DNA from: Escherichia coli
GTDB lineage: Bacteria; Pseudomonadota; Gammaproteobacteria; Enterobacterales; Enterobacteriaceae
Length of the DNA: 64,000 nucleotides
Reading direction: 5' to 3' (one strand)
Assembly: GCF_036507355.1 (NCBI RefSeq)
Contig: NZ_AP027877.1
A program made the position numbers and the translations under genes. This document shows, piece after piece, positions 1,668-63,589 of this stretch; positions within the stretch are counted from its first letter, which is position 1, and the number at the start of each line of letters is the position of its first letter. Below the pieces are notes generated by a model. It worked only from the letters and a program-made list of their open reading frames with translations, ran no database searches and was not told where the DNA came from.

Positions 1668-2408
1668 ATGTCTATAGACTGGAACTGGGGTATTTTTTTA
1701 CAACAAGCCCCGTTCGGCAACACCACCTATCTTGGTTGGATCTGGAGTGGTTTTCAGGTGACGATCGCTTTGTCGATCTGCGCCTGGATTATCGCTTTCC
1801 TCGTCGGTTCATTTTTCGGCATTTTACGTACCGTTCCAAACCGTTTTCTATCCGGTCTGGGTACGTTGTATGTCGAACTGTTCCGCAACGTGCCGTTGAT
1901 TGTGCAATTCTTTACCTGGTATCTGGTGATCCCGGAGCTGCTGCCGGAGAAAATCGGCATGTGGTTTAAGGCCGAGCTGGATCCCAATATTCAGTTTTTC
2001 CTTTCATCCATGCTCTGCCTGGGGCTGTTTACTGCGGCTCGCGTTTGCGAACAGGTACGCGCCGCGATTCAGTCGCTGCCGCGCGGGCAAAAAAATGCCG
2101 CGCTGGCGATGGGGCTGACGCTGCCGCAGGCTTACCGCTATGTACTGTTGCCTAATGCTTATCGCGTTATCGTCCCGCCGATGACTTCCGAGATGATGAA
2201 CCTGGTGAAAAACTCCGCCATCGCCTCGACTATCGGTCTGGTGGATATGGCGGCGCAGGCGGGTAAATTGCTCGATTACTCGGCCCACGCCTGGGAGTCG
2301 TTTACCGCCATTACGCTAGCGTATGTGTTGATTAACGCTTTTATCATGCTGGTGATGACGCTGGTTGAACGTAAAGTTCGCCTGCCCGGCAACATGGGGG
2401 GCAAATAA
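1668..2408 (+). CDS. gltJ: glutamate/aspartate ABC transporter permease
   Basis: 246 aa ORF, multiple hydrophobic helices, immediately follows gltI. Confidence 0.92.
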
Positions 2409-3082
2409 TGTACGAGTTTGACTGGAGTTCTATTGTCCCTTCCCTGCCGTATCTGCTGGATGGGCTGGTGATCACCCTGAAAATCACCGTCACGGCAGTC
2501 GTGATTGGTATTTTGTGGGGCACCATGCTGGCGGTGATGCGCTTGTCCAGCTTTGCGCCCGTAGCGTGGTTTGCCAAAGCCTACGTTAACGTATTCCGCT
2601 CGATTCCTTTAGTTATGGTTTTGCTGTGGTTTTACCTGATCGTGCCGGGTTTTCTGCAAAACGTGCTGGGATTATCACCAAAAAATGATATCCGTTTAAT
2701 TTCGGCGATGGTGGCGTTTTCGATGTTTGAAGCGGCCTACTATTCAGAGATTATCCGTGCTGGTATTCAAAGTATTTCTCGTGGTCAGTCGAGCGCCGCG
2801 CTGGCGTTGGGAATGACTCACTGGCAGTCGATGAAACTGATTATTCTGCCGCAGGCGTTCCGCGCGATGGTGCCGCTGCTGCTTACTCAGGGCATCGTAC
2901 TGTTCCAGGATACCTCACTGGTGTATGTGTTATCTCTGGCCGATTTCTTCCGTACCGCCTCAACCATTGGTGAGCGTGATGGTACGCAGGTTGAGATGAT
3001 CCTGTTTGCCGGATTTGTTTATTTCGTTATTAGCCTTAGCGCGTCGTTGTTGGTCAGCTACTTGAAAAGAAGGACAGCATAA
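2408..3082 (+). CDS. gltK: glutamate/aspartate ABC transporter permease
   Basis: 224 aa ORF, start overlaps gltJ stop (ATGA-type coupling). Confidence 0.92.
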
Positions 3083-3807
3083 TGATTACCCTGAAAAATG
3101 TTTCAAAATGGTATGGTCACTTTCAGGTGCTGACCGACTGCTCAACCGAAGTGAAAAAAGGCGAAGTGGTGGTGGTTTGCGGCCCGTCTGGTTCCGGCAA
3201 ATCAACGCTGATTAAAACCGTCAACGGCCTCGAACCGGTGCAGCAAGGTGAAATCACCGTCGATGGTATCGTGGTTAACGACAAGAAAACCGATCTGGCA
3301 AAGCTGCGTTCCCGCGTCGGGATGGTATTCCAGCATTTCGAGCTGTTCCCTCATCTGTCGATTATCGAAAACCTGACCCTGGCGCAGGTGAAAGTGCTTA
3401 AACGCGATAAAGCACCCGCTCGTGAAAAAGCATTGAAATTGCTGGAGCGCGTGGGACTTTCCGCACATGCCAATAAATTTCCGGCACAGCTTTCCGGCGG
3501 TCAGCAGCAGCGTGTGGCGATCGCTCGCGCATTGTGTATGGATCCTATTGCCATGCTGTTCGACGAACCGACATCGGCGCTGGATCCGGAGATGATCAAC
3601 GAAGTGCTGGACGTAATGGTCGAACTGGCGAATGAAGGAATGACCATGATGGTGGTGACCCACGAAATGGGCTTTGCCCGTAAAGTGGCGAATCGGGTGA
3701 TCTTTATGGATGAGGGTAAAATTGTCGAAGACTCGCCGAAAGATGCGTTCTTCGATGATCCGAAATCGGACCGCGCAAAAGACTTCCTCGCGAAAATCCT
3801 GCATTAA
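3082..3807 (+). CDS. gltL: glutamate/aspartate ABC transporter ATP-binding protein
   Basis: 241 aa; Walker [13 protein letters not shown] signature LSGGQQQR, Walker [12 protein letters not shown]. Confidence 0.95.
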
Positions 3808-3924
3808 TCACTCTGGCGCGCATCCCCAAGTGCGCGCCATCTCACGCTTTATCGTTTCGCCCCTCGTATCTGTTACATCCTGGCGTTACCCTTGCCGCAA
3901 AGAAGCACACAACAAGGAGCAACA

Positions 3925-29521: not shown

Positions 29522-30316
29522 TCATAATAATTGCGGCGGCGCAAAGCGACGGTTGTTTAAGACGGGCAGTTGCGCGCGCACCTGACGCACACGTTCGGGC
29601 GTCACTTCCGCCATAATGAGTGCAGGCATTTCTGACGCTGCCGCAATGGTGACGCCAAAGGGATCTATAATCCGGCTTTGCCCGATATTTTTGTTCCCGC
29701 ACTCCCCCGCCGCCACCATATAACAGGTGGTATCCAGCGCACGAGCGGCAAGCAACGTTGACCAGTGATGCTCTTTGAGCGGCCCGCGAACCCAGGCGGC
29801 AGGAAGTGCCAGGATTTCAGCTCCCTGTAATGCCTGTGCCAGCGCCAGCTCTGGAAAGCGTAAGTCATAACAGGTCATCAGACCGACCTTCATCCCTTCC
29901 ACCTCCAGTAACGGAGCGATTTCATTACCAGCATCAACACGGCGTGATTCCTGAATGGCAAATGCATCATAGAGATGCAGTTTGGCATAACGGGCGACAA
30001 TGTTTCCTGCCTGTAGCGCCACCAGCATATTCCATGCGCGCCCCGGCGTTGAAGGAACATGAATCGTCAGAATTGTCGTCATCATGTTACGTTTACTTTC
30101 TCGCCGTAAACGTCCGAGGAATTCGCCTTCCAGCAGCTGTGCTGATTTAACCGATAGATCTGCATCATGATCATCGCGTGCCAGCAATGCTTCCGGCAGG
30201 ACAAACAGCGATACGTCGTTTTCCGCCGCCTGCGCCATCAACGAGGCACAAATCTCAGCGTTCTTTTCCCACACAGATGTAACAGCAAACTGTCCTGCAG
30301 CAACCAGCATTGCCAC
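29522..30316 (-). CDS. ybeM: C-N hydrolase (nitrilase superfamily) protein, apparently intact
   Basis: 264 aa uninterrupted ORF; catalytic Cys context [12 protein letters not shown]. Confidence 0.75.
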
Positions 30317-30402
30317 CTCCTGTCAGAGTCGTAAAATTCGCCAACGACGATTATTCGGCGTTACACTTATCACTCATACAAATCAAATAGCAGGATTTTG
30401 CA

Positions 30403-30786
30403 GTGTTACAACTTCTTTTAGCAGTTTTTATTGGCGGTGGTACGGGAAGCGTGGCGAGATGGCTGTTAAGTATGCGATTTAACCCGCTGCATCAGGCGAT
30501 TCCGTTGGGGACGCTGGCTGCAAATCTGATTGGGGCATTCATCATAGGAATGGGATTCGCCTGGTTCAGCAGGATGACAAACATTGATCCCGTGTGGAAA
30601 GTATTAATCACCACCGGATTTTGTGGCGGTCTTACAACCTTCTCAACATTTTCGGCAGAAGTGGTGTTTTTGTTACAAGAGGGCCGCTTTGGCTGGGCGT
30701 TACTGAACGTTTTCGTCAACCTTCTGGGGTCTTTTGCCATGACCGCACTGGCTTTCTGGCTGTTTTCGGCCTCAACCGCACACTAA
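30403..30786 (+). CDS. crcB: fluoride ion channel CrcB/FluC
   Basis: 127 aa, four hydrophobic helices. Confidence 0.9.
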
Positions 30787-30792
30787 AGACCA

Positions 30793-30821
30793 AAAAAAAC
30801 CCGCTGATTAAGCGGGTTTTG
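30793..30821. terminator. bidirectional rho-independent terminator between convergent crcB and cspE
   Basis: aaaaaaaacccgctgattaagcgggttttg. Confidence 0.75.
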
Positions 30822-30839
30822 AATTCTTGCTGACGTATC

Positions 30840-31049
30840 TTACAGAGCGATTACGTTTGCAGCAGAAGGGCCTTTGGCACCGTTAGTGATTTCGAACTCT
30901 ACGCGCTGACCTTCAGCAAGAGTTTTAAAACCATTAGTCTGGATTGCAGAGAAGTGTACGAACACGTCTTTGCTGCCGTCTTCCGGAGTAATGAAACCGA
31001 ATCCTTTGGACTCATTAAACCACTTAACGTTACCTTTAATCTTAGACAT
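30840..31049 (-). CDS. cspE: cold-shock-domain protein CspE
   Basis: ORF 30840..31133 trimmed to [20 protein letters not shown] (RNP1 motif); 69 aa. Confidence 0.92.
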
Positions 31050-31223
31050 CAAAATTACCTTTACATGAAAAATAGACACAAATGCTGTGTCGGTTACCAG
31101 TACACCAATTGTGGTACGCTTTGTCCAGTGCAACTTTACTAAAAAGTGATAAAAGTCGCGTTATTTTTGATGTTAATTATTTTACTCATTGATTTTAAAG
31201 AATTTACTAAAACTTCATTTGTC

Positions 31224-31714
31224 TCAAAACTGAAAGCGCATCCAGGCAAAGTACACATTACCATTGTTGTAGGTACCCGGAATATAGGTCATCTGAAAAG
31301 TCACTGGACCATAACCCACGGAGGCCAATGGCAGTAGAACCGGGAGAGGGATGTTATTCCAGTTATCACGTGCCGTTACGCCAGCGGTGAATCCCAGACC
31401 TAAATGAAAAGTTTCATCCGCCAGCGGTCGCCAGGTACTTTCCCATCCGTATCCGGCAATCGGTTCCCATTTGTTCCACGAGTCCTTAAATGCCATGGCA
31501 TACAGGCCATGCCAGTTTCCTTTTTCATCCCAACGCGACAGGCCAAAACCGCCACCCCACGGTCGCTCGTTATAGCGATCGGTTTTTTCTTTGTCGTAAG
31601 CGAAACGTGCATGCCAGGTGATGGCAGGAATATATAAATCATAATGTTCAGGCTGTTGCCAGGTTTGTGCAATATTTTCTCTAAACGTTGTCATCCACTC
31701 ATCTGCGTTAGCAA
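31224..31714 (-). pseudogene. pagP: lipid A palmitoyltransferase PagP, 5'-truncated: signal-peptide codons and promoter replaced by IS1
   Basis: Reading frame continues upstream of the ORF-track Met as ...[15 protein letters not shown] and runs straight into the IS1 terminus at 31715; first ~24 codons absent. Confidence 0.85.
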
Positions 31715-31729
31715 GGTAATGACTCCAAC

Positions 31730-32233
31730 TTATTGATAGTGTTTTATGTTCAGATAATGCCCGATGACTTTGTCATGCAGCTCCACCGATTTTGAGAACG
31801 ACAGCGACTTCCGTCCCAGTCGTGCCAGGTGCTGCCTCAGATTCAGGTTATGCCGCTCAATTCGCTGCGTATATCGCTTGCTGATTACGTGCAGCTTTCC
31901 CTTCAGGCGGGATTCATACAGCGGCCAGCCATCCGTCATCCATATCACCACGTCAAAGGGTGACAGCAGGCTCATAAGACGCCCCAGCGTCGCCATCGTG
32001 CGTTCACCGAATACGTGCGCAACAACCGTCTTCCGGAGCCTGTCATACGCGTAAAACAGCCAGCGCTGGCGCGATTTAGCCCCGACATAGCCCCACTGTT
32101 CGTCCATTTCCGCGCAGACGATGACGTCACTGCCCGGCTGTATGCGCGAGGTTACCGACTGCGGCCTGAGTTTTTTAAGTGACGTAAAATCGTGTTGAGG
32201 CCAACGCCCATAATGCGGGCTGTTGCCCGGCAT
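31730..32233 (-). CDS. insB: IS1 transposase InsB frame (InsAB' made by -1 frameshift)
   Basis: 167 aa ORF recognised as IS1 InsB. Confidence 0.9.
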
Positions 32234-32427
32234 CCAACGCCATTCATGGCCATATCAATGATTTTCTGGTGCGTACCGGGTTGAGAAGCGGTGTAAGTGA
32301 ACTGCAGTTGCCATGTTTTACGGCAGTGAGAGCAGAGATAGCGCTGATGTCCGGCGGTGCTTTTGCCGTTACGCACCACCCCGTCAGTAGCTGAACAGGA
32401 GGGACAGCTGATAGAAACAGAAGCCAC
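32152..32427 (-). CDS. insA: IS1 InsA transposition inhibitor/repressor
   Basis: 91 aa; [43 protein letters not shown] zinc-finger N-terminus. Confidence 0.92.
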
Positions 32428-32482
32428 TGGAGCACCTCAAAAACACCATCATACACTAAATCAGTAAGTTGGCAGCATCACC

Positions 32483-33848
32483 CCTTATTGGGGTTGTGGT
32501 TATTGTGGGTGTAGCTCGCTACATCATTAAAGGGTATTCCGCCACTGGCGTGTTATTTGTCGGTGGCCTGTTATTGCTGATTATCAGTGCCATTATGGGG
32601 CACAAAGTGTTACCGTCCAGCCAGGCTTCAACAGGCTACAGCGCCACGGATATTGTTGAATACGTTAAAATATTGCTAATGAGCCGCGGCGGCGACCTCG
32701 GCATGATGATTATGATGCTGTGTGGCTTTGCCGCTTACATGACCCATATCGGCGCGAATGATATGGTGGTCAAGCTGGCGTCAAAACCATTGCAGTATAT
32801 TAACTCCCCCTACCTGCTGATGATTGCCGCCTATTTTGTTGCCTGTCTGATGTCACTGGCCGTCTCTTCCGCAACCGGTCTGGGTGTTTTGCTGATGGCA
32901 ACCCTGTTTCCGGTGATGGTAAACGTTGGTATCAGTCGTGGGGCAGCAGCTGCCATTTGTGCCTCCCCGGCGGCGATTATTCTCGCACCGACTTCAGGGG
33001 ATGTGGTGCTGGCGGCGCAAGCTTCCGAAATGTCGCTGATTGACTTCGCCTTCAAAACGACGCTGCCTATCTCAATTGCTGCAATTATCGGCATGGCGAT
33101 CGCCCACTTCTTCTGGCAACGTTATCTGGATAAAAAAGAGCACATATCTCATGAAATGTTAGATGTCAGTGAAATAACCACCACTGCCCCTGCGTTTTAT
33201 GCCATTTTGCCGTTCACGCCGATCATCGGGGTGCTGATTTTTGACGGCAAATGGGGTCCGCAATTACACATCATCACTATTCTGGTGATTTGTATGCTGA
33301 TTGCCTCCATTCTGGAGTTCCTCCGCAGCTTTAATACCCAGAAAGTTTTCTCTGGTCTGGAAGTGGCTTATCGCGGGATGGCAGATGCATTTGCAAACGT
33401 GGTGATGCTGCTGGTTGCCGCTGGGGTATTCGCTCAGGGGCTTAGCACCATCGGCTTTATTCAAAGTCTGATTTCTATCGCTACCTCGTTTGGTTCGGCG
33501 AGTATCATCCTGATGCTGGTATTGGTGATTCTGACAATGCTGGCGGCAGTCACGACCGGTTCAGGCAATGCGCCGTTTTATGCGTTTGTTGAGATGATCC
33601 CGAAACTGGCGCACTCTTCCGGCATTAACCCGGCGTATTTGACTATCCCGATGCTGCAGGCGTCAAACCTGGGTCGTACCCTATCACCCGTTTCTGGCGT
33701 AGTCGTTGCGGTTGCCGGGATGGCGAAAATCTCACCATTTGAAGTCGTAAAACGCACCTCGGTGCCGGTGCTTGTTGGTTTGGTGATTGTTATCGTTGCT
33801 ACAGAGCTGATGGTGCCAGGAACGGCAGCAGCGGTCACAGGCAAGTAA
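32483..33848 (+). CDS. dcuC: anaerobic C4-dicarboxylate transporter DcuC, 5' end and promoter replaced by IS1 (possible fusion start inside IS1 end)
   Basis: ORF track 32469..33848 begins with TTG inside the IS1 terminal repeat; DcuC-like sequence from ...LIGVVVIVGVARYIIKGY onward. Confidence 0.7.
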
Positions 33849-33888
33849 ATAGTAATGCCGGAGGCAAGTTTCCTCCGGCTTTATCATG

Positions 33889-34569
33889 TCACCCACTGTG
33901 GTATATGCGTTGCGGTCTGCCAACTTTGCCGTGAACAATTTCAGCAATAATCAGATGGCGGCTGGCGCAATATTCAAGATAACGCCTGGCAGTGGTGCGG
34001 CTGATGGTCAGTGCCTGCGCCACTGTTTCTGCCGTATGTTGCACACCCGGCTCTTTGAACAGTTTTCGCACCGCGTTTAGCGTCAAAGGGTCAATGCCGG
34101 TCGGCAGTTCGTCTTTGGGTTCACCGCGAGCATAGGCATTAAACATCTCATCAATTTGCTTCTGGCTGGCGCTATCAATACTTTCCAGCATATGTTTACG
34201 CTGGCGGAAACGGGTTAGCGTTTGCCCCAGCCGTTCATAGGCAATTGGCTTAATGAGATAATCAAATACACCACAACGTACGGCTTCAGACACCGTTTCC
34301 ATATCGCTGGCTGCAGTGGTAAACACCACGTCGCCGGGATAATGCGCCTGCACCAGTTCATGCAGTAAATTAATCCCTCTACCGTCAGGAAGATAGTTAT
34401 CGAGCAAGATTAGCCCCGGCTTAAAACGCTCGATCATCATTCGGGCCTGCGCCAGGTTTCCCGCCAGTAATATCTGACTGAATCCGGGAATGTGACGAAT
34501 ATATTCCGCATGCATCTCTGCCAGCGGCGTTTCGTCCTCAACGATCAATAGGGTTAATGGAGCTGTCAT
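33889..34569 (-). CDS. dpiA: two-component response regulator DpiA (CitB)
   Basis: 226 aa; receiver domain LTLLIVEDE; C-terminal HTH. Confidence 0.9.
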   Translation of the reverse strand: MTAPLTLLIVEDETPLAEMHAEYIRHIPGFSQILLAGNLAQARMMIERFKPGLILLDNYLPDGRGINLLHELVQAHYPGDVVFTTAASDMETVSEAVRCGVFDYLIKPIAYERLGQTLTRFRQRKHMLESIDSASQKQIDEMFNAYARGEPKDELPTGIDPLTLNAVRKLFKEPGVQHTAETVAQALTISRTTARRYLEYCASRHLIIAEIVHGKVGRPQRIYHSG

Positions 34570-36196
34570 TAGGTTTCACTTTCGGAATATAGATTGAAAA
34601 TAAGGTACCGCAGGGATCATTATCTTCGAGAGTGATAACACCACCGCAGCGCGTTACGTAGCTGGCAATCAAGTACAACCCAATGCCATGTTCACCGGGC
34701 TCGTCAGCACGCGTACTGACCCCCTGCTCAAATATTTTGTCTCGTAGAGACTCTGGAACGCCGCAGCCCTGATCGGCGACTTCAATCACCACATCATCGC
34801 CTTCATCGCTGAGGAATAATTCAACGATCTTGTTTCCTTCATCGCTACGCAGGCTGGCTTCGAAGGCGTTATCAAGTAAATTTCCCACAATGGCGGCAAA
34901 CTCGGTGCTATCCAGTCCTGGCGGCAGTTGCGAAAGCTGGCTACCGGGGACGATGATCATTTTTAGCCCCAGTTCGCGGGCGCGCTGCACTTTACCAAAA
35001 AGCAGCCCCGCCACCTGGCGATCGGCAAACGCCTCGCGCAGGCTGTCAATAAGCTGTTGCTGGGCCTGAGACTCCCCCTGCACCATCGCCAGCACGCGAT
35101 CATACTCTTTCATCTGCAACAGACCATTGAGCGTCGACATCCAATTGAGATGCTCGTGTCGCAATGTACGAAGGCTCTCGACGTATTGTTTTATTTGCGT
35201 CAGTTGCGCATTGAGGGTGGAAATTTCGTCTTTACTACGAAAGCTGATAATGGCCCCCAGCAAATCATCACCTGAACGAATAGCTTCCCGATTGGCAATA
35301 ACGCTCAGACCGTTAAAGTTAGCCACCACATCCTGACGTTTTTCATCAATCTGTTCGGTAAAGAAATCGGCGGGCCTGACCACTTCAGCAATGGGTTTAC
35401 CCAACCATTGCCGTCCGGGGGAACTCAGCCCCAGCATCTTTCTTGCGTTACGATTGATGGCGGTAATGTAACCGTGCGGATCCACCGCAATCAGCCCTTC
35501 ATAAACCGAACTAAACAGCGCCTCTTGCTGACGGACCACGCGTGCGATTTGCTTTGGCTCCATGCCCATCATCTGCCGACGGATATGCGCGGCCAGGAAC
35601 CACGACAGCAACATCAGAATCCCTAACAGCACGACAAACACACCTGCCATCGGTAATAAAAACTCAGCCCGCCAGCTATCGATTTTACTCACCAGGTAGC
35701 CAATCGACACCACGCCGATGACTTTTCCATCGTCATCAAAGATTGGCGTTTTGGCGCGCATCGCCATACCCATTGACCCTTTCCCGGTAATGAAGTAGCT
35801 CTCCCCTTTCTCCAGCGCGCCCTGTTTGGTGAACTGCATAGGATAACCAATTTTCTCCGGATTAGGATGGTAAAGGCGGATCGAGTGCCGGTCGCCAATC
35901 ACCACATAATCAAAATCGGTATCTCTTTGTAATTTGTTAGCGATGGTCGCCAGCCGTTTGTAGTCACGCGTTTTCACCGTAGAGATGACACTGTCATTGG
36001 AGGCAATAATTTTCGCCTGATTCATTGCCATGTCGCGTACATGAAGCGTTAAATAGTCCTCAAAACTGGCCGTAAAATATTGCGCCAGGGCTGCAATGAC
36101 AAATATTGAGAACACCAGAATCAGCAAAAAGATACGCAGCGGAAATGCCAGTCTTTGGAAAAATGCAAACTGTTTATTCTCGTTAAGCTGCAACAT
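34538..36196 (-). CDS. dpiB: sensor histidine kinase DpiB (CitA)
   Basis: ORF 34538..36256 trimmed to MLQLNENKQFAFF; two TM helices, periplasmic domain, H-box and ATPase motifs; 552 aa. Confidence 0.88.
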   Translation of the reverse strand: MLQLNENKQFAFFQRLAFPLRIFLLILVFSIFVIAALAQYFTASFEDYLTLHVRDMAMNQAKIIASNDSVISTVKTRDYKRLATIANKLQRDTDFDYVVIGDRHSIRLYHPNPEKIGYPMQFTKQGALEKGESYFITGKGSMGMAMRAKTPIFDDDGKVIGVVSIGYLVSKIDSWRAEFLLPMAGVFVVLLGILMLLSWFLAAHIRRQMMGMEPKQIARVVRQQEALFSSVYEGLIAVDPHGYITAINRNARKMLGLSSPGRQWLGKPIAEVVRPADFFTEQIDEKRQDVVANFNGLSVIANREAIRSGDDLLGAIISFRSKDEISTLNAQLTQIKQYVESLRTLRHEHLNWMSTLNGLLQMKEYDRVLAMVQGESQAQQQLIDSLREAFADRQVAGLLFGKVQRARELGLKMIIVPGSQLSQLPPGLDSTEFAAIVGNLLDNAFEASLRSDEGNKIVELFLSDEGDDVVIEVADQGCGVPESLRDKIFEQGVSTRADEPGEHGIGLYLIASYVTRCGGVITLEDNDPCGTLFSIYIPKVKPNDSSINPIDR

Positions 36197-48788: not shown

Positions 48789-48807
48789 AATTACGCGATT
48801 GCGGAAC

Positions 48808-56134: not shown

Positions 56135-56286
56135 CAATACCTCCGGTAAACAGGTTGCTGAGAGAGTGCATTAATAGCTATCAACGCGCTCGGTCAGTCC
56201 CCTCGCCCCATCGAGGAGAGGGTTAGGGTGAGGGGGAACCCTCGGCACTATGCCAACATTCGCCAACATCCCCCCTCACTCTGACT

Positions 56287-63449: not shown

Positions 63450-63589
63450 ATTTTCGGTCGCTAACCTAAAAGCAAACGCGCACTATGTCAACTCTTGAGG
63501 TAACGCAATCTGCAACTCGGGGTTGCATCTGGTTGTGGTTACAATGAAAATGAGAAGCATTAACTTCATTAATAACAGGAAGCTGATTT

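Follow-up and report, generated by a model that had tools for sequence, protein, structure and literature searches.

Organization of the pagP-dcuC locus

The window analyzed here, a 64,000-nucleotide stretch of Escherichia coli contig NZ_AP027877.1 (RefSeq assembly GCF_036507355.1), spans the lnt-gltI...leuS...lipA-tatE-crcB-cspE-pagP-dcuC-dpiAB-cit-ahp-ent segment. It is collinear with K-12 positions 689,535-624,100, in reverse orientation and at ~98-99% identity. Between pagP and dcuC lies a complete IS1 element (Table 1). The copy has the 768-bp size of the family and imperfect terminal inverted repeats of ~23 bp, and it matches Pfam families PF03811, PF12759, and PF03400. In IS1, the A6C motif serves as the site of a programmed -1 frameshift between insA and insB', and its presence here suggests that the element is intact and potentially active. 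A promoter-like site in the left inverted repeat (IRL), CTGCCA-N16-TATGAT, is directed inward and is presumably the insA promoter.

Table 1. Features at and around the IS1 junctions between pagP and dcuC, in window coordinates
Feature	Coordinates	Strand	Remarks
Hairpin terminator between convergent crcB (+) and cspE (-)	30796..30820		crcB and cspE placed from K-12 annotation
pagP remnant	31224..31714	-	nt 1-70 gone; first start ATG 31694 (156 aa)
Complete IS1, 768 bp, IS1A-like	31715..32482	- (transposase genes)	Fills the K-12 655,949-656,626 gap
IS1 right inverted repeat (IRR)	31715..31737		23 nt, 78% complementary to 32460-32482; adjoins truncated pagP
insB' frame, intact	31730..32233	-	IS1 DDE transposase domain
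insA, 91 aa	32152..32427	-	Zn_ribbon_InsA and HTH_Tnp_IS1 domains; directed away from dcuC
A6C programmed -1 frameshift motif, between insA and insB'	32170..32176	-	Position 307, IS1 sense strand
Promoter-like site in IRL, CTGCCA-N16-TATGAT	32448..32475	-	Inward, toward insA, away from dcuC
IS1 left inverted repeat (IRL)	32460..32482		Adjoins truncated dcuC; holds the TTG of the chimeric ORF
Chimeric ORF, 459 aa, TTG start	32469..33848	+	14 nt of IS1, dcuC codons 7 (3rd base)-461, and stop
TTGGCA, -35-like hexamer	32469..32474	+	5/6 match to TTGACA; ends 8 nt from the IS1 end
Junction-made hairpin ACCCC-TTATT-GGGGT	32480..32494	+	Terminator-like scan match; 12 nt downstream of TTG
dcuC remnant, nt 21-1386 of native gene	32483..33848	+	Remaining coding sequence intact

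The alignment to K-12 covers window positions 30000-31714 and 32483-36000 and breaks between them, where the 678 bp at K-12 655,949-656,626 are absent. The lost DNA consists of nucleotides 1-70 of pagP, the entire 588-bp divergent intergenic region, and nucleotides 1-20 of dcuC. The missing part of pagP encodes most of the signal peptide, and the remnant keeps the entire mature PagP domain. dcuC is activated by FNR (PMC5293742), and the lost sequence includes TTGATTTTAATCAG, an FNR-consensus-like box at -103 to -90, as well as the Shine-Dalgarno region GGAGACAGGA and the dcuC ATG. The GC content of the deleted interval is 31.7%, compared with 49-51% in the dcuC and pagP coding remnants; the breakpoints therefore coincide with the edges of an AT-rich island. 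The 9-bp sequences bordering the IS1, CGTTAGCAA on the pagP side and CCTTATTGG on the dcuC side, are different, and the target-site duplication of 8-10 bp (usually 9 bp) is missing, while simple IS1 insertions elsewhere in the same region do show target duplications. Because the flanks differ and 678 bp of K-12 sequence are gone, we regard the element as a deletion derivative rather than a simple insertion. The original prediction, which described a possible in-frame IS1::dcuC fusion at this junction, correctly recognized the chimeric open reading frame but overlooked both the 678-bp deletion and the beheading of pagP.

The chimeric open reading frame

The DcuC frame had been predicted to open at a TTG inside the IS1 terminal repeat, and the ORF listing confirms this placement. 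TTG 32469, part of ttggcagcatcacc and 14 nt in from the IS1 end, provides an in-frame start for an ORF of 459 aa. The sequence across the junction (marked by a slash), TTG GCA GCA TCA CC/C CTT ATT GGG, reads M-A-A-S-P-L-I-G-V-V-V. Residues 6-459 of the chimera are 100% identical to residues 8-461 of K-12 DcuC, and the Pfam DcuC domain (PF03606) is matched essentially in full (E = 5.8e-151; residues 6-449, profile positions 4-460 of 461). The first residues are changed: the native heptapeptide MLTxxE(L/I), conserved across Escherichia, Salmonella, Enterobacter, and Klebsiella, is swapped for MAASP. Neither the native DcuC N-terminus nor the FNR-dependent promoter region is retained. The first transmembrane segment keeps its hydrophobic core (LIGVVVIVGVARYII), and on this basis a chimeric DcuC, if made, might work. 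The undamaged dcuC coding sequence after the junction fits a recent event and fits maintained function too.

An open frame of this kind is readily produced. One of the three phases at the IRL end has a start-type codon after its last in-frame stop; in the window, that stop is TAA 32457-59, and TTG 32469 is the only start-type codon to follow it. With one open phase in three, roughly one-third of random coding junctions with the IS1 IRL would therefore give such an in-frame fusion, and the chimeric frame is not beyond chance expectation.

Transcription across the junction

Two sources of transcription had been proposed for the fusion, namely transposase read-out and promoter elements carried by the IS1 end. 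The first is excluded because insA (32427 to 32152) and insB' lie on the - strand, facing away from dcuC and toward pagP. As to the second, hybrid (fusion) promoters of IS1 were reportedly described by Prentki et al. in 1986. To activate a neighbor, IS1 contributes an outward -35 box from its inverted repeat and the flank contributes a -10 box; the hybrid promoter works only where a correctly spaced flank -10 exists (PMC8764528, PMC9330008). In the cases of afaA in ST131 (PMC8764528) and of acrEF and blaTEM (PMC9330008), the same IS1 end faces the downstream gene as in the window; unlike these cases, the window offers no usable -10, and its proposed start codon falls within the -35 box. The outward -35 box is stated without its sequence (PMC8764528), and TTGGCA was identified as the window's -35 box from the sequence itself. 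Among the outward-reading hexamers in the final 30 nt of IS1, it alone reaches 4/6 matches or more to TTGACA, and its first three bases are the proposed TTG start codon. The hexamers at the corresponding -10 positions, GGGTTG, GGTTGT, and GTTGTG (16-18 bp spacing), match the consensus at 0, 2, and 1 of six positions, respectively, and matches remain at 0-2/6 for every spacing from 15 to 19. The predicted transcription start of the hybrid promoter, at ~32503-05, lies downstream of both TTG 32469 and GTG 32496. With the TTG inside the -35 box and transcription predicted to begin at ~32503-05, the promoter and start-codon roles of this sequence therefore exclude each other. The junction has the outward -35 element but neither a flank -10 nor a predicted transcript that would cover the start codon and its ribosome-binding site, and the idea that an outward IS1 promoter drives the TTG frame is not borne out. 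The arrangement in FDAARGOS_1284 is unlike that of the window: there, dcuC is intact, and an IS1 variant lying 38 bp upstream of it forms TTGGCA-N18-TATTAT.

A consensus-level scan of 31100-33000 returned no promoter-like sites on the + strand, and a relaxed + strand scan gave a single candidate (GTAAAA-N19-CATAAT at 32184). At this consensus level, no upstream promoter or read-through source for an expressed fusion was found, in scans that could miss weak or non-sigma-70 promoters, pervasive transcription, and SD-independent initiation. Like the IS1 genes, pagP and cspE lie on the strand opposite to dcuC. Read-through from an upstream + strand gene was considered and rejected: crcB, the only such gene within 2 kb on the upstream side of the TTG, lies at a distance of 1.7 kb and has a strong hairpin terminator behind it. 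This hairpin, between crcB and the convergent cspE, would act on the + strand, as its symmetric stem suggests.

Translation of the chimera

The TTG is poorly equipped as a translation start. In the 20 nt before TTG 32469, the best duplex with the anti-Shine-Dalgarno sequence reaches -0.2 kcal/mol at zero spacing, compared with -6.4 kcal/mol for the native ATG, and no Shine-Dalgarno sequence suited to an expressed fusion is present upstream of the TTG. Opening the -20 to +15 region costs 12.9 kcal/mol at the TTG versus 6.3 kcal/mol at the native start, a doubling that arises because the junction creates a CCCC-UUAUU-GGGG hairpin. The same hairpin sequesters the GGGG that might otherwise serve GTG 32505.

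These features bear on whether MAASP-DcuC could nonetheless be made at a low, FNR-independent level, with weak or pervasive transcription crossing the IRL and initiation at TTG 32469 proceeding without a Shine-Dalgarno sequence. The ORF is intact and in frame, the transmembrane-1 core is kept, an identical junction occurs in three backgrounds (see below), and RefSeq counts the protein as intact, all of which would agree with such expression. However, the upstream + strand shows no promoter-like site, the TTG is a weak start with negligible Shine-Dalgarno pairing and a hairpin 12 nt downstream, and the conserved N-terminal heptapeptide is gone. Moreover, the recurrence was found with the chimeric protein as the query, which sees in-frame copies only, and IS1 is classically polar in both orientations. 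We therefore consider low-level synthesis of the chimera improbable.

Initiation further inside dcuC is the other way in which a transporter might still be produced. The -35 box of the IRL would act with a -10 box in the flank, and translation from GTG 32496 or GTG 32505 would yield a DcuC of 450 or 447 aa. An outward -35 box is indeed known from IS1 (PMC8764528), GGGG 32490-93 pairs with the anti-Shine-Dalgarno sequence at -5.4 kcal/mol and lies 9 nt before GTG 32505, and this GTG is the start chosen in GenBank record BED23330.1. The -10 matches of 0-2/6 across spacings of 15 to 19 speak against a working promoter, however, and a transcript starting at ~32503-05 would be leaderless. The junction hairpin ties up the GGGG, and opening it costs 17-19 kcal/mol; half of transmembrane segment 1 would be missing from the product; and the 447- and 450-aa forms in databases are mostly older annotations that are not specific to the junction. 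Expression by this route appears most improbable.

The reading that we favor is that dcuC and pagP are most probably non-functional remnants of a recent IS1-associated deletion and that dcuC is silent. The deletion removed the FNR-type promoter of dcuC along with its 5' UTR, Shine-Dalgarno sequence, and ATG, and from pagP it took the start that encodes the signal peptide. The dcuC left behind would be a promoterless, RBS-less, and 5'-truncated gene, with the TTG of the IRL in phase by chance and the open reading frame mechanical only. The anatomy, the deletion, the gene orientations, and the missing consensus promoter and Shine-Dalgarno signals are observed directly, and from them we infer silence of dcuC in vivo. 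Constitutive expression of a chimera, as the original prediction envisaged, finds no support in an IS1 that has no + strand promoter-like site upstream of the TTG and no Shine-Dalgarno sequence before it. Its fallback, a silent dcuC, is favored by these same absences and by IS1 genes that face away.

Distribution and recurrence of the IS1 junction

The region from -100 to +100 of native dcuC is kept in 5396 of 5426 complete E. coli genomes, and none of the 5426 contains the window's IS1-dcuC junction in one piece. Neither orientation of the exact junction had a match in JGI metagenome contigs. Other IS1 events in the interval include deletions in tcmA_3 (K12rc 2373-3865) and MB51 (K12rc 2368-2975) and simple insertions in five further genomes.

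An exact look-up found the identical IS1-dcuC junction in two draft genomes, L004 (GCA_045080605.1) and L010 (GCA_008756675.1). In L004, dcuC and its flank correspond to K-12 with 1 mismatch in 4949 positions, and dcuC differs from that of the window by 26 synonymous changes, the first only 67 bp from the junction. L010 encodes a chimera with L287I, and its 9.4-kb flank is 100% identical to complete genomes in which dcuC is intact. The window, L004, and L010 have three different dcuC backgrounds, so the junction has at least three origins. These recurrences were found by a chimeric-protein look-up in which only in-frame copies in one orientation are detectable, and because of this they say little on selection; the in-frame orientation in 3/3 is not significant. 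The protein collection held no opposite-orientation chimera (MESLP-DcuC) and none of five other allele variants of the MAASP chimera, and L287F and V11A chimera variants were likewise not found. A 156-aa PagP variant (P0025) occurs on a draft contig that ends 2 nt before the ATG, short of any left junction.

Insertion sequences of another family have produced closely similar deletions. In NT1N31 and NT1N34 (IS5) and 23AR1101 (ISKpn26), the left flank ends in ...GCGTTAG, 3 nt from the pagP breakpoint of the window, and the right flank begins with CTTATTGG, 1 nt from the IS1 junction. As in the window, both genes are beheaded, dcuC stays in frame, and PGAP calls both intact from starts in or next to the IS ends. 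These cases differ from the window in the IS family involved and in their 4-bp targets; the start is called at an ATG within the IS end for ISKpn26 and at an ATT after the junction for IS5. TUM14664 carries ISKpn26 with the same left junction, and there the element ends 55 bp upstream of the dcuC ATG, its right end being 2 nt from the IS1 junction of MB51. Altogether, IS1 and IS5-family junctions coincide within 1-4 nt at three sites. Simple insertions, in which no gene start is deleted, are also on record: the dcuC::IS5 allele of W3110 (PMC2072959) is at the same locus and is an insertion within dcuC rather than a deletion, and kanamycin-adapted K-12 (PMC6307192) acquired IS5 in the dcuC-pagP 5' UTR region without removal of either gene start. 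In laboratory and natural strains alike, insertion sequences repeatedly hit the dcuC/pagP region.

In-frame recurrence could come from selection for a functional chimera or from shared target hot spots. If selected, the recurrent removal of this interval by IS1 and IS5-family elements would represent an adaptive allele, with the FNR-independent chimera expressed, the loss of exported PagP advantageous, or both; we judge this very unlikely. We prefer to read the IS1/IS5 coincidence as a sign of target hot spots that both families share at the AT-rich island's borders. A transpositional deletion has a target site at its distal end, and IS1 prefers AT-rich DNA (PMC9330008). Homology between the dcuC or pagP target and the IS1 ends was also considered as the cause of the hot spot and was rejected: no local alignment is better than CTTATTG, a score reached by 32% of random 60-nt K-12 windows.

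Origin of the deletion

IS1-promoted adjacent deletions were reportedly described by Reif and Saedler in 1975 and by Turlan and Chandler in 1995. The window resembles them in that the deletion begins exactly at the terminus of an intact IS1, the element is complete and without 9-bp direct repeats, and the distal endpoint resembles an IS1 target site, with the same nucleotide used in other strains. IS1 typically makes adjacent deletions of this form, with one endpoint exactly at the IS terminus and no direct repeats around the element, and intramolecular replicative transposition gives rise to them (reviewed in PMC9330008). The literature searched yielded no description of an IS1 deletion at the pagP-dcuC locus. 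The kind of event, ordinary IS1-associated pseudogenization, is known, and the deletion is a new instance of it for IS1 at this locus.

An IS1-associated deletion removed the 678-bp interval between pagP codon 24 and dcuC codon 7. One IS1 end may have transposed intramolecularly into a target close by, or two IS1 copies, one at each site, may have recombined. The two-copy route would begin with two independent IS1 insertions in the same orientation, at the pagP target CGTTAGCAA and the dcuC target CCTTATTGG, followed by homologous recombination. IS1 has used the dcuC site independently in L004 and L010 and has hit the 8-bp pagP cluster 2367-2374 in tcmA_3 and MB51, and recombination would, like the one-element route, leave a single IS1 without direct repeats. 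However, no genome with both simple insertions was seen, and the two routes yield an identical product that the sequence does not discriminate. We hold the two-copy route to be possible, if somewhat doubtful.

Database annotation and implications

The exact 459-aa chimera is present in NCBI as WP_338387754.1/HGG2576320.1, annotated as "anaerobic C4-dicarboxylate transporter DcuC." GenBank holds a 447-aa form that starts at GTG 32505 (BED23330.1) and a 156-aa PagP (BED23328.1); the former is probably the original record of the window's genome, a conclusion to which the adjacent accession numbers contribute. Two annotation pipelines consequently disagree on the dcuC start (TTG 32469 versus GTG 32505). 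The 447- and 450-aa DcuC forms, found on 64 and 39 contigs, respectively, were examined as further junctions and rejected, their names suggesting older genome projects; they probably stem from the choice of start site in intact genes and lack specificity for the junction.

The "intact DcuC" of RefSeq is an annotation rescue: WP_338387754.1 owes its listing as intact to the chance phase of a TTG in the IS1 inverted repeat. Start-codon rescue of this kind also affects pagP and the IS5-family junctions. In tcmA_3, PGAP opens the truncated pagP at an ATT within the IS1 IRR, and in 23AR1101, it opens dcuC at the ATG within the ISKpn26 end; more deeply truncated dcuC is labeled a pseudogene. That RefSeq lists a promoter-less, RBS-less dcuC as an intact transporter calls for caution in annotation, as tallies of intact dcuC and pagP can be in error for strains of this kind, and so can the metabolic models that depend on them. 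At three sites on the edges of a 32%-GC island, IS1 and IS5-family junctions fall together, which offers a small lead on shared target selection by unrelated transposases. For the organism itself, the deletion probably means a strain without DcuC-mediated succinate efflux and without PagP lipid A palmitoylation.

IS elements at the pagP-dcuC locus in other genomes

The IS1-dcuC junction of the window recurs, matching exactly, in two draft assemblies of differing background (comparison loci L004 and L010; see table). Both contigs reach only 126 nt into IS1, short of the pagP side; ends at this position look like an assembler k-mer overlap. A different arrangement is found in FDAARGOS_1284, where IS1 lies 38 bp upstream of the ATG of an intact dcuC and is flanked by a 9-bp duplication. 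This insertion created TTGGCA-N18-TATTAT, plausibly a hybrid promoter, in contrast to the IS1-dcuC junction of the window.

IS5-family elements occupy the same interval in three further loci. IS5 and ISKpn26, two elements with 91% mutual identity, share the left junction ...GCGTTAG|GGAAGG. On the right they join dcuC at nt 22 or at -55, which places these junctions 1-4 nt from those made by IS1 in the window and in tcmA_3 and MB51, two complete genomes with other IS1 deletions in this interval. Different family members were observed at the identical two junctions in two related strains (3 differences in 2.5 kb of flank).

Coordinates of features at the pagP-dcuC locus in the window and in comparison loci (L) from other E. 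coli genomes
Feature	Location	Source	Remarks
IS1 insertion	L006 2537-2580	NZ_CP070170.1, FDAARGOS_1284	divergent IS1, 93% identical
IS1-dcuC junction	L004 1-140	draft GCA_045080605.1	K-12-identical background
IS1-dcuC junction	L010 1-140	draft GCA_008756675.1	SK1144-like background
IS5/ISKpn26 between pagP and dcuC	L014 2806-4001	NZ_CM132250.1	
IS5/ISKpn26 between pagP and dcuC	L017 2408-3602	NZ_CP075480.1	
IS5/ISKpn26 between pagP and dcuC	L018 1907-3102	NZ_CP135649.1	
PagP start	L002 2714-2719	NZ_CP059835.1, tcmA_3	ATT codon within IS1 IRR; PGAP
pagP remnant	window 31224-31714	window, - strand	signal peptide gone, entire mature PagP domain kept

Length differences around the locus

The 64-kb window holds one IS1 copy (31715-32482) and lacks, at 483-490, the IS5D located between gltI and lnt in K-12 (687,851-689,045). 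Breaks in the BLAST alignment to K-12 mark further absent segments: ~127 bp of the ahpC-ahpF spacer (48793-48805), matching an ERIC/IRU repeat in size; ~33 bp near ybdD (56169-56173); and ~183 bp of the fepB-entC intergenic region (63560-63562). The complete genomes closest to window 20000-44000 (99.0-99.4% identity) span 26-36 kb, mostly 32-36 kb, for this 24-kb query and therefore hold 2-12 kb (mostly 8-12 kb) of extra DNA within the interval, absent from both the window and K-12.

Truncated pagP and the direction of possible IS1 read-out

Annotation can restore a truncated pagP: PGAP calls the 164-aa PagP of tcmA_3 (WP_251365464.1) intact from a start inside IRR, the pagP-side inverted repeat, a rescue of the same kind as that of dcuC in the window. 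Upstream of ATG 31694 in the window pagP remnant, no in-frame start-type codon was found. The remnant shares its strand with insA/insB' and lies immediately downstream of IRR, so any IS1 read-out would reach pagP, not dcuC.
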